In this document: in pieces, positions 14,101 to 17,100 of the stretch
How positions within the stretch are numbered: the first letter of the stretch is position 1
How the letters are laid out: each line of letters begins with the position of its first letter
Source of the DNA: Escherichia coli
GTDB lineage: Bacteria > Pseudomonadota > Gammaproteobacteria > Enterobacterales > Enterobacteriaceae
Strand: one strand, 5' to 3'
Assembly: GCF_016903815.1 (NCBI RefSeq)
Contig: NZ_CP069973.1
DNA length: 64,000 bases
Program-made: the position numbers

Positions 14101-17100
14101 TTGGCTTAGTTTCCATCTCTGATCGCGCATCCAGCGGCGTTTATCAGGATAAAGGCATCCCTGCGCTGGAAGAATGGCTGACATCGGCGCTAACCACGCC
14201 GTTTGAACTGGAAACTCGCTTAATCCCCGACGAGCAGGCGATCATCGAGCAAACGTTGTGTGAGCTGGTGGATGAAATGAGTTGCCATCTGGTGCTCACC
14301 ACGGGCGGAACTGGCCCGGCGCGTCGTGACGTAACGCCCGATGCGACGCTGGCAGTAGCGGACCGCGAGATGCCAGGCTTTGGTGAACAGATGCGCCAGA
14401 TCAGCCTGCATTTTGTACCAACTGCGATCCTTTCGCGTCAGGTGGGTGTGATTCGCAAACAGGCGCTGATCCTTAACTTACCCGGTCAGCCGAAGTCTAT
14501 TAAAGAGACGCTGGAAGGTGTAAAGGACGCTGAGGGTAATGTTGTGGTGCACGGTATTTTTGCCAGCGTACCGTACTGCATTCAGTTGCTGGAAGGGCCA
14601 TACGTTGAAACGGCACCGGAAGTGGTTGCTGCATTCAGACCGAAGAGTGCAAGACGCGAAGTTAGCGAATAAAAAAATCCCCCCGAGCGGGGGGATCTCA
14701 AAACAATTAGTGCGATTCACCAATCGGCAGAACGGTGCGACCAAACTGCTCGTTCAGCACTTCACCCATCGCCAGATAGATTGCGCTGGCACCGCAGATC
14801 AGACCAATCCAGCCGGCAAAGTGGATGATCGCGGCGTTACCGGCAATGTTACCGATCGCCAGCAGGGCAAACAGCACGGTCAGGCTAAAGAAAACGAATT
14901 GCAGAACGCGTGCGCCTTTCAGCGTGCCGAAGAACATAAACAGCGTAAATACGCCCCACAGACCCAGGTAGACACCAAGGAACTGTGCATTTGGCGCATC
15001 GGTCAGACCCAGTTTCGGCATCAGCAGAATCGCAACCAGCGTCAGCCAGAAAGAACCGTAAGAGGTGAATGCGGTTAAACCGAAAGTGTTGCCTTTTTTG
15101 TACTCCAGCAGACCAGCAAAAATTTGCGCGATGCCGCCGTAGAAAATGCCCATGGCAAGAATAATACCGTCCAGAGCGAAATAACCCACGTTGTGCAGGT
15201 TAAGCAGAATGGTGGTCATGCCGAAGCCCATCAGGCCCAGCGGTGCCGGATTAGCCAACTTAGTGTTGCCCATAATTCCTCAAAAATCATCATCGAATGA
15301 ATGGTGAAATAATTTCCCTGAATAACTGTAGTGTTTTCAGGGCGCGGCATAATAATCAGCCAGTGGGGCAGTGTCTACGATCTTTTGAGGGGAAAATGAA
15401 AATTTTCCCCGGTTTCCGGTATCAGACCTGAGTGGCACTAACCATCCGGCGCAGGCAGGCGATTTGCAGTACGGCTGGAATCGTCACGCGATAGGCGCTG
15501 CCGCTGACCGCTTTAACCCCATTTAGTGCCGCGCCTACAGGGCCTCCCAGCCCCGCGCCGCGCAGCAAACCATGCCCAAGTACGCTCATTGCTGCGTGGG
15601 TGCGTAAAATGCGGGTCAATTGGCTGGAAAGCAAATGCGACACGCCTTTTGCCAATAATTTGTCTTTCATCAGCAGCGGCAGCAGCTCTTCCAGCTCATT
15701 CACCCTGGCATCGACCGCGTGCAGAAACTCCTGCTTATGTTCCTCGTCCATTTTCTTCCAGGTATTACGCAGAAATTGCTCCAGTAACTGTTGCTCAATT
15801 TCAAACGTAGACATCTCTTTGTCGGCTTTCAGCTTCAATCTTTTTGAAACATCGAGCAAAATGGCCCGATACAATTTACCGTGTCCGCGCAATTTGTTGG
15901 CGATACTATCGCCACCAAAATGTTGTAATTCTCCGGCAATCAGCTGCCAGTTGCGGCGGTGTTGCTCGGGATGTCCTTCCATCGATTTAAACAGTTCGTT
16001 GCGCATCAGTACGCTGGAGAGGCGAGTTTTGCCTTTTTCATTATGAGTGAGCAGCCGGGCGAAATTTGCCAATTGTTCCTCACTACAATGCTGGAGAAAA
16101 TCCAGATCTGAATCATTCAGGTAATTAACATTCATTTTTTGTGGCTTCTATATTCTGGTGTTAGTCGTCGCCGATAATTTTCAGCGTGGCCATATCCGAT
16201 GAGTTCACCGTATGGCCGGAAAAGGTGATTTTTGAGACGCAGCGTTTATTGTCGTTATCGCTGTTAATGTTGATCCAGTCAGTGGTTTGCCCTTCTTTTA
16301 TTTCTGAAGGAATATTCAGGCTCTGACTGGCGCTACGGGCGGCTTTGAAATAAACCGATGCACCACTTAACTGTAAATCGCCATGGTCGGCAGTGAGTTG
16401 AATGCGTTTAACAATGCGACAAACAGGAAGTTTCAGCGCCAGATCGTTGGTTTCGTTACGCGGCATCGCAATGACGCCGAGGATTTTATGGTTGTTTGCC
16501 TGCGCTGTGCAGCACAGCAGCAGGCTAATCGCCAGGCTGGCGGAAAGCGTAAAAACGGATTTCATAAGGATTCTCTTAGTGGGGAGAGGTAGGGGATGAA
16601 TACCCACTAGTTTACTGCTGATAAAGAGAAGATTCAGGTACGTAATATTTTCTTTTTATTACAATTTTTGGTGAATACCTTGGCTGAGATTCATTCTTTA
16701 TATGAATAAAATTGCTGTCAGTTTCACGTCTTGTTCTGCCATATCGCGAAATTTCTGCGCAAAAGCACAAAAAATTTTTGCATCTCCCCCTTGATGACGT
16801 GGGTTACGACCCCATTTAGTAGTCAACCGCAGTGAGTGAGTCTGCAAAAAAATGAAATTGGGCAGTTGAAACCAGACGTTTCGCCCCTATTACAGACTCA
16901 CAACCACATGATGACCGAATATATAGTGGAGACGTTTAGATGGGTAAAATAATTGGTATCGACCTGGGTACTACCAACTCTTGTGTAGCGATTATGGATG
17001 GCACCACTCCTCGTGTACTGGAGAACGCCGAAGGCGATCGCACCACGCCTTCTATCATTGCCTATACCCAGGATGGTGAAACTCTGGTTGGTCAGCCGGC

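Follow-up and report, generated by a model that had tools for sequence, protein, structure and literature searches.

Organization of the yaaI-dnaK intergenic region

We analysed a 64,000-nt window of the E. coli chromosome (contig NZ_CP069973.1), in which the segment 16786-16892 falls within the 374-nt yaaI-dnaK intergenic region. The genes downstream were delimited from ORFs and from the RefSeq annotation of a matching strain:

16940-20075, + strand: dnaK-dnaJ operon, driven by P1/P2
16940-18856, + strand: dnaK
18945-20075, + strand: dnaJ

An Rfam match to tpke11 sits in the dnaK-dnaJ spacer. Minus-strand ORFs overlapping the site (16698-16847, 49 aa, TTG start) were judged spurious; conservation is poor in the DNA upstream of 16766.

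The 401 nt around the site matched many genomes at 100%. Compared with K-12 MG1655, a single substitution was found across 16766-16960, namely G16803 here for T in K-12, so that all bases of 16786-16892 are those of K-12 except this one in the P1 spacer. A spread sample of 12 genomes was drawn from the 5,424 complete E. coli genomes that matched; in 10 of them a 140-nt stretch showed 100% identity with the window, and G16803 thus appears from these sequences to be the common form of the base among E. coli. The near-identical sequence and the shared yaaI | dnaK-dnaJ context indicated orthology with K-12 dnaKp1/dnaKp2: the locus and flanking genes are the same, as are the promoters, starts and leader (bar the P1 spacer base) and the distances of the boxes from the measured starts. 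The K-12 starts, 12048 and 12123, are those of the RegulonDB and EcoCyc promoters. They place the two sites 115 and 40 nt upstream of the proteostasis operon dnaK-dnaJ.

The first-pass annotation had proposed two sigma-32 promoters in this segment, corresponding to the known dnaK P1 and P2. Its motif strings were positioned correctly, all of them on the + strand and between 48 and 154 nt ahead of the dnaK ATG (16940), with CCCCCTTGATGA from 16786, CCCCATTTA at 16810-16818, TTGAAACC from 16866 and CCCCTATTA at 16884-16892. Its identification of the pair was borne out by K-12 orthology, by published starts and by conservation.

Elements of the P1 promoter

The following elements were assigned to P1:

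16769-16779, + strand: candidate UP element, A-tract/T-tract AAAAAATTTTT, at -56 to -46 of P1
16783-16796, + strand: dnaK P1 extended -35 region TCTCCCCCTTGATG, with the CTTGAT hexamer (16790-16795) at -35 to -30
16797-16809, + strand: P1 spacer of 13 nt, holding G16803
16810-16818, + strand: P1 -10 region CCCCATTTA, with C-15 and C-14 as extended -10 and A16814 at -11
16825, + strand: P1 transcription start A16825 (K-12 12048), with a leader of 115 nt

Conservation was assessed with a phylogenetic footprint of 82 sequences from about 80 Enterobacteriaceae species. The P1 motif reads CTTGAT-N14-CCCCATTT (16790-16817). Its -35 hexamer matches CTTGAA at 5/6 positions, and the surrounding block CCCCCTTGATG (16786-16796) had a mean identity of 0.96 across species, with CTTGATG in 78 of the 82 sequences and CTTGAGG in the other 4. 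The C-rich -10 matches CCCCATNT at all seven specified positions. Within this 8-mer, CCCCA and the final T were present in 82/82 sequences and the T after the A in 80/82, the variation being otherwise limited to the N position of the consensus; 16818, a lowercase "a" in the consensus, is variable across species. The spacer was 13 nt long in every sequence (82/82) despite 43 distinct spacer sequences and a mean identity of 0.62. Farther upstream, the putative UP element at 16769-16779 had a mean identity of 0.83 compared with 0.34 in the intergenic DNA upstream, and its A-run followed by a T-run was retained in almost all aligned species.

Elements of the P2 promoter and the register of its -10 region

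The elements of P2 and the leader common to both transcripts were as follows:

16845-16851, + strand: A7 tract, candidate UP-like element, at -55 to -49 of P2
16865-16871, + strand: dnaK P2 -35 region GTTGAAA, with GTTGAA at -35 to -30 from the P2 start
16884-16892, + strand: dnaK P2 -10 region CCCCTATTA; preferred register CCCTATTA (16885-16892) at -15 to -8, with A16889 at -11
16900, + strand: P2 transcription start A16900 (K-12 12123), with a leader of 40 nt
16901-16939, + strand: leader common to P1 and P2 transcripts, with Shine-Dalgarno GGAG at 16928-16931 and a mean identity of 0.90 across species

The P2 motif extends from GTTGAA to CCCCTATTA (16865-16892). GTTGAA matches CTTGAA at 5/6 positions; TTGAAA was found in 81/82 sequences, and the -35 block had a mean identity of 0.98. 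The A7 tract is nearly invariant across species. The resemblance of the -10 region to the C-rich sigma-32 element is weak, with 5/7 matches to CCCCATNT in either of two registers. The first-pass annotation had located this region correctly and read it as CCCCTATT, the less likely register: the measured starts and the species variants suggest that it is more likely to be read as CCCTATTA, giving both promoters one geometry. The variants were GCCCTTATTA (65 sequences), GCCCCTATTA (8), GCCCGCATAA (5) and GGCCGCATAA (3), in which A16889 and T16890 are fixed and, in the preferred register, CAT is restored in 8 species. The change T16888C in that register would yield CCCCATTA. The spacer is 12 nt in the earlier register and 13 nt in the preferred one, the distance being constant in 80/82 sequences. 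P1 and P2 thus both have the short fixed spacer expected of a sigma-32 promoter (~13-14 nt, TTGAAA to CCCC).

Taken over both promoters, mean identity (P1/P2) was 0.88/0.87 in the -10 blocks, and the P2 spacer had a value of 0.71. Selective conservation applies to the boxes and the distance between them, while the spacer sequences and the upstream intergenic DNA drift.

When P1 and P2 were compared with the groESL, htpG, lon and rpoD Phs promoters (consensus TNtCNCcCTTGAA / CCCCATtTa), P1 likewise had a C-rich run before CTTGA, a CCCCAT -10, the extended -10 CC and a short spacer. P2, in contrast to these promoters, carries GGGCAG where a C-rich run would precede the -35, and its -10 reads CCCTAT or CCCCTA in place of CCCCAT. 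The P2 -10 of most other genera is still further from the sigma-32 consensus (CCCTTATTA).

Motif statistics in the window

Both strands of the window were searched for CTTGAA-N14-CCCCATNT. At ≤1 mismatch there was one match, P1; 0.05 matches were expected from shuffles, and any match occurred in 5/100 shuffles. P2 needs 3 mismatches; at this level 19 matches occurred in the window and 18.3 were expected, so that the motif by itself does not set P2 apart from chance. The claim that both sites fit the heat-shock consensus thus stood for P1 (≤1 mismatch), while P2 (3 mismatches) is a poor match by itself, and only its position, conservation and measured start make it convincing.

A sigma-32 motif scan had been suggested as a check. 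By simple match count P1 was joint top at 12/14, tied with two other sites, and P2 scored 11/14, as did roughly 15 other sites. The two sites level with P1, one in the caiT-fixA intergenic region (51753-51781, + strand) and one inside espX1 (28477-28504, - strand), were regarded as chance sigma-32-like matches, their number being about that in shuffles at 2 mismatches.

Transcription starts and published evidence for sigma-32

The Cappable-seq supplement lists + strand starts in K-12 at 12048 (score 60.6) and 12123 (score 112.2) (PMC4782308). These data were obtained from K-12 without heat shock, and the K-12 sequence is that of the window except for the one P1 spacer base. Position 12048 corresponds to A16825 in the window and 12123 to A16900 (bases verified). 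Counted from these K-12 starts, the -35 hexamer of either promoter spans -35 to -30 and position -11 is an A; each start follows its -10 motif by 6-7 nt, within the distance of 6-8 nt that had been looked for. The geometry is that given for sigma-32 open complexes (PMC10216364). Comparison with mapped dnaK starts had also been proposed as a check on the first-pass annotation; the Cappable-seq starts fell exactly at the predicted places and did not refute it.

Other sources agree on these positions. A preprint places dnaKP1 at 12047 and dnaKP2 at 12123; the same P1 boxes and the same -35 are given in PMC2910072, with the A of GTAGTCA as +1; and position 40 of the scaffold in PMC10216364 is the P1 +1 base. 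In a reconstituted system, sigma-32 supported far more transcription from dnaKp1 than sigma-70 did (PMC2910072), and a cryo-EM structure of the sigma-32 open complex on a dnaKp1-derived scaffold includes extended -10 contacts (PMC10216364). In genomic SELEX, RpoH holoenzyme bound between yaaI and dnaK, with a peak at 12044 (PMC5493296). In Salmonella, the dnaK promoter region has two RpoH sites, 100% conserved with E. coli, and the consensus is quoted (PMC12077118). Expression of the dnaK-dnaJ operon is heat-inducible and rpoH-dependent in vivo (PMC12077118, PMC6887450), and dnaK is described as being transcribed from three promoters, in a dnaK-dnaJ message (PMC3082872). A low-depth 5'-RACE table (Kim et al. 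2012) has 12157 as its only dnaK start, with 4 reads, and contains neither P1 nor P2 (PMC3415461); its depth was considered insufficient to count against Cappable-seq.

From this evidence, the motifs are almost certainly the tandem sigma-32 (RpoH) heat-shock promoters dnaK P1 and P2 of E. coli. Sigma-32 dependence of dnaK P2 was reportedly described by Cowing et al. in 1985, and P1 and P2 are said to have helped define the sigma-32 consensus in that year. The literature accessible to us, which did not include Cowing et al. 1985, yielded no direct in vitro or genetic test of P2 with sigma-32.

Weighing of alternative explanations

It is unlikely that P2, or both sites, serve mainly sigma-70 or are dual sigma-70/sigma-32 promoters whose likeness to the heat-shock consensus is secondary. 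By inspection, P2 also reads as TTGAAA-N16-TATTAC (16866-16893), with 5/6 matches to TTGACA and 4/6 to TATAAT, a partial match that may permit P2 some use by sigma-70, but TATTAC lacks the T at the final -10 position, and the C-run upstream of TAT, which a sigma-70 promoter would not need, is conserved. A generic scan of 16400-17100 for sigma-70 promoters and terminators gave no site at P1 or P2; its three promoter-like matches were upstream or on the other strand. The start at P2 is stronger than that at P1 in non-stressed K-12 (112 vs 61), as sigma-70 use would allow; the activity that sigma-32 has at 37 °C suffices to account for basal starts. Work cited in PMC3082872 deals with overlap between sigma factors at the dnaK locus; P1 strongly prefers sigma-32 in vitro (PMC2910072).

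We consider it extremely improbable that the motifs are chance consensus matches and that the true dnaK promoters occupy other places in the 374-nt intergenic region. The motif score of P2 is at chance level, the unrelated sites at 51753 (+) and 28504 (-) equal P1 in a simple match count, and one TSS data set has neither start (PMC3415461). Against this stand the measured starts downstream of both -10 motifs, the selective conservation of boxes and spacing across genera and, for P1, the direct in vitro, structural and SELEX evidence. Equally implausible is that the conserved blocks are not promoter elements and form the operator of a heat-shock repressor, such as an inverted repeat of the CIRCE/HrcA type. 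P2 is flanked by the arms of an inverted repeat (16836-16847 and 16890-16901), but these are 42 nt apart and the repeat tolerates G-U-type changes, which fit RNA pairing and not a DNA palindrome; moreover, CIRCE (TTAGCACTC-N9-GAGTGCTAA) had 0 matches at ≤3 mismatches in the window. E. coli is not known to have HrcA.

With P1 and P2 as tandem sigma-32 promoters, RNA polymerase carrying sigma-32 would read the -35 elements CTTGAT (16790-16795, P1) and GTTGAA (16865-16870, P2) together with the C-rich -10 elements CCCCATTT (16810-16817, P1) and CCCTATTA (16885-16892, P2). Transcription would begin at A16825 and A16900, respectively, producing the dnaK-dnaJ mRNA. Heat or misfolded proteins would raise the level and activity of sigma-32, so that both promoters would fire harder, and DnaK and DnaJ would feed back negatively on sigma-32, as the literature describes. 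This strain probably behaves like K-12.

A putative stem in the P1 leader

As a side observation, the footprint contained a covarying stem that encloses P2:

16836-16844, + strand: 5' arm GUGAGUCUG of the putative P1-leader stem, K-12 12059-12067
16893-16901, + strand: 3' arm CAGACUCAC of the same putative stem, K-12 12116-12124, overlapping the P2 discriminator and start

Pairing was retained across Enterobacteriaceae through G-C, G-U, A-U and U-A/C-G exchanges. We tentatively suggest, at slightly less than even chance, that the P1 transcript, and not the P2 transcript, carries a conserved long-range stem that folds away 48 nt with the P2 promoter. Single-sequence folding gave no energetic signal (z = -0.64 for the P1 leader, +0.73 for the P2 leader), and the stability of the shared leader did not exceed that of shuffled sequence. 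An RNA thermometer was rejected because there was no such signal and the Shine-Dalgarno was not sequestered in this folding. No Rfam family covers the intergenic region, the only match at E-value ≤1 being a meaningless one to U4atac (E = 0.37). We found no description of a P1-leader stem in the accessible literature, and an older account is possible.

The sigma-32-driven hslVU (clpQY) operon has a stem-loop in its 5' UTR that is required for mRNA stability (PMC2681174). The dnaK P1 leader is similar in having a 5'-proximal inverted repeat in a heat-shock mRNA leader; the putative dnaK stem differs from that of hslVU in being long-range, with 48 nt enclosed, and in occurring in P1 transcripts only, and no sequence similarity is claimed.

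Significance

dnaK P1 and P2 are already known, and the first-pass call was correct but ordinary. The result changes nothing in the account of this locus and serves as a positive control: a reader working from sequence alone was able to recognise a real alternative-sigma promoter. It also illustrates that the motif score of a true promoter, P2, can be no different from chance, so that only context, conservation and start-site data reveal it. P1 is still a standard template for sigma-32 biochemistry and structure. What the cross-genus comparison adds is an alignment of the P2 -10 that shares the P1 geometry and a possible uncharacterised conserved stem in the P1 leader. If the stem is true, both mRNAs would present the same unstructured 40-nt translation-initiation leader, and the stem could protect the 5' end of the P1 mRNA, like the hslVU leader stem.

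Genomic context of the dnaK promoters

The window is Escherichia coli chromosome, and the 401 nt around the promoters are identical (100%) in many complete genomes, with some match in 5,424 of 5,426 complete E. coli genomes. Positions 19893-64000 are collinear with strain 7/2 at 99.995% identity. Two promoters called as sigma-32 (RpoH) promoters from sequence, P1 and P2, both lie inside the 374-nt yaaI-dnaK gap.

Genes at the promoter locus
16161-16565 (-), yaaI, upstream flank of the promoter gap
16940-18856 (+), dnaK, downstream flank
18945-20075 (+), dnaJ, next after dnaK

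Alignment with K-12 MG1655 from 16766 to the dnaK start revealed a single difference, G16803 (T in K-12) in the P1 spacer, and in the promoter region the window coordinate equals the K-12 coordinate plus 4777. Because 10 of 12 genomes, a spread sample of the 5,424 matching ones, matched the window at 100% across 140 nt, the K-12 base appears to be a minority form.

Start sites and promoter geometry

The Cappable-seq table of PMC4782308 lists K-12 plus-strand starts at 12048 (score 60.6) and 12123 (112.2), which correspond to A16825 and A16900 (base identities checked). In PMC2910072, dnaKp1 (P1) is written TTGATG...CATTTA and starts at the A in GTAGTCA, which coincides with A16825; the cryo-EM scaffold of PMC10216364 (-39 to +15) places +1 on the same A, and in a preprint the positions are 12047 for dnaKP1 and 12123 for dnaKP2. 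Counted from the published starts, P1 and P2 have identical geometry: CTTGAT (16790-16795) and GTTGAA (16865-16870) occupy -35 to -30, and position -11 is A in both (A16814, A16889). Since this geometry is shared, published start mapping favours the first-pass annotation, which had placed heat-shock promoters here. P2 was reportedly first mapped and studied in vitro in 1985 by Cowing et al., as other papers cite it.

A shallow 5'-RACE set (PMC3415461), whose sole listed dnaK start is at 12157 (4 reads), was not weighed against the deeper start data. PMC4782308 also lists weak starts at K-12 12140 (5.6) and 12155 (2.2), equivalent to 16917 and 16932, within the P2 leader. Because PMC3082872 gives dnaK three promoters, with a dnaK-dnaJ message, 16917 may represent a minor promoter P3; a good -10/-35 pair was not evident upstream of it.

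Motif matches

Every string quoted in the first-pass annotation was found at its position. Allowing no more than one mismatch, a search of both strands for CTTGAA-N14-CCCCATNT returned one site in the window, P1, against 0.05 expected from shuffles, so the P1 motif is above chance. P2 requires three mismatches, and such sites numbered 19 against 18.3 expected; by motif alone P2 is no better than chance. In a match-count scan, P1 (12/14) was joint top and P2 (11/14) stood among roughly 15 other sites. Two sites scored equal to P1 and are probably chance matches, their count being that predicted by shuffles.

Sites scoring equal to P1
51753-51781 (+), ATTGAAA-N14-CGCCATGT, caiT-fixA intergenic, about 165 nt upstream of fixA
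28477-28504 (-), TTTGAAA-N13-CACCATCT, inside espX1

Conservation across Enterobacteriaceae

A dnaK start-codon pattern, run against species-representative genomes, picked up 81 loci, whose labels were almost all Enterobacteriaceae genera. After two unusable loci were dropped, adding the window and two records from E. coli brought the set to 82 promoter regions.

Segments of the upstream-region alignment, with mean identity to the window
yaaI-proximal intergenic DNA, 0.34
P1 -35 block, 0.96
P1 spacer, 0.62
P1 -10, 0.88
P2 -35, 0.98
P2 spacer, 0.71
P2 -10, 0.87
Shared leader, 0.90

The P1 spacer was 13 nt long in 82/82 regions with 43 distinct sequences, the P1 8-mer CCCCATNT changed essentially only at the consensus N (the T after A was altered in 2/82), and the P2 -35 to -10 distance was unchanged in 80/82. 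Fixed boxes and spacing with a free spacer sequence are what promoter function would predict.

Two A/T tracts also stood out against the poorly conserved DNA farther upstream, both at candidate UP-element positions.
16769-16779, AAAAAATTTTT, conserved, about -56 to -46 of P1
16845-16851, AAAAAAA, conserved, -55 to -49 of P2

The 40-nt leader common to the P1 and P2 transcripts (16901-16939) was about 90% identical across genera, far beyond the needs of the Shine-Dalgarno alone, yet its predicted structure was weaker than that of shuffled sequence (z = +0.73).

The P2 -10 element and alternative readings

The first-pass annotation read the P2 -10 as CCCCTATT. Most genera carry GCCCTTATTA where Escherichia carries GCCCCTATTA, and eight species carry G(C/G)CCGCATAA. 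Position 16887 is C in Escherichia (CCCCTATTA) and T in 65/82 (CCCTTATTA), with GCATAA in 8 others. A16889 and T16890 are invariant, and the preceding base is C in those eight species, restoring CAT. The four-C run behind the consensus likeness seen in that annotation is largely an Escherichia feature, occurring in 8/82 sequences, plus one with CCCCTA and an inserted base. Although the two registers tie at 5/7 consensus positions each, the invariant AT and restored CAT, the published start and a 13-nt spacer as in P1 favour CCCTATTA (16885-16892, -15 to -8) over CCCCTATT.

Low-level sigma-70 use of P2 as TTGAAA-N16-TATTAC is possible, but the -10 hexamer lacks the final T, a sigma-70 scan returned no site there, and sigma-70 does not need the conserved C-run. 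Published starts and conservation exclude chance as the origin of the two motifs. Searching the window at up to 3 mismatches gave no CIRCE-type operator, and no family covered the promoter region in an Rfam search.

Putative stem in the P1 leader

A 9-bp inverted repeat flanks P2, pairing GTGAGTCTG (16836-16844) with CAGACTCAC (16893-16901) and reaching 12 nt at 92% complementarity (to 16847 and 16890); both arms occur in the P1 transcript only. In an alignment of 67 distinct Enterobacteriaceae leaders, 94.2% of cells held standard pairs, against 22-47% with the partner shifted 1-3 columns. Two pairs switched freely with almost no unpaired cells (AU 36, GU 21, GC 10; CG 38, UA 24, UG 2, GU 1), and the G-U pairing suggests an RNA element and not a palindrome in the DNA. 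None of the three observed values (percentage paired, double-change cells, covariation score) was reached in 500 shuffles. Among 6,328 possible 9-pair helices the stem ranked first for pairing, alone at >=90%, and seven of the top eight covariation scores were registers of it, one unrelated helix scoring similarly. RNAalifold independently predicted 5/9 of its pairs. Stricter counts were weak: 3 both-side-changed pairs against 2.6 expected, and 9 further pair types against 7.5, which 6/500 shuffles reached. Given few independent evolutionary events behind the covariation, an E. coli P1-leader fold that is not unusually stable (z = -0.64) and a right arm also constrained as the P2 start region, a functional stem falls slightly short of an even call. 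No description of it was found in Rfam or in the papers searched; by analogy, it might act like the stem in the hslVU leader, through which another sigma-32 mRNA is stabilised.

Other features of the window

18867-18944 (+), tpke11 Rfam match (69.6 bits), dnaK-dnaJ spacer
20329-20481 (-), sok antitoxin RNA Rfam match (120.5 bits), adjoining mokC/hokC downstream of dnaJ
about 23086-29509, nhaR to rpsT, chaperone-usher fimbrial cluster and type III effector gene espX1
about 59934-60484, downstream of folA, chromosomal ccdA antitoxin gene beside ccdB, an annotated pseudogene with an internal stop

The last two follow the matching strain's annotation. In K-12 (stretch compared, 15387-16731) IS186A (insL1) lies just after dnaJ, whereas the corresponding part of the window (about 20076-20916), like strain 7/2, is IS-free, with dnaJ followed directly by mokC and nhaA.

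Sigma-32 dependence

The literature directly supports sigma-32 dependence of P1: dnaKp1 transcription in a reconstituted system was far higher with sigma-32 than with sigma-70 (PMC2910072), a scaffold derived from dnaKp1 yielded a sigma-32 open-complex structure (PMC10216364), and SELEX placed an RpoH-holoenzyme peak at K-12 12044 (PMC5493296). The Salmonella dnaK promoter region has two RpoH sites 100% conserved with E. coli (PMC12077118, with RpoH consensus TNtCNCcCTTGAA / CCCCATtTa).

The present analysis shows what the promoter elements are, how they are placed and how they are conserved; the mechanism is from the literature. K-12 identity, starts and conservation support the claim that these are the known dnaK P1 and P2; the observation is confirmed, its interpretation supported and the feature already known. 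On the published account, heat or misfolded protein increases sigma-32 abundance and activity (PMC12077118), its holoenzyme binds P1 and P2 to transcribe dnaK-dnaJ, and DnaK and DnaJ exert negative feedback on sigma-32 (PMC12077118).
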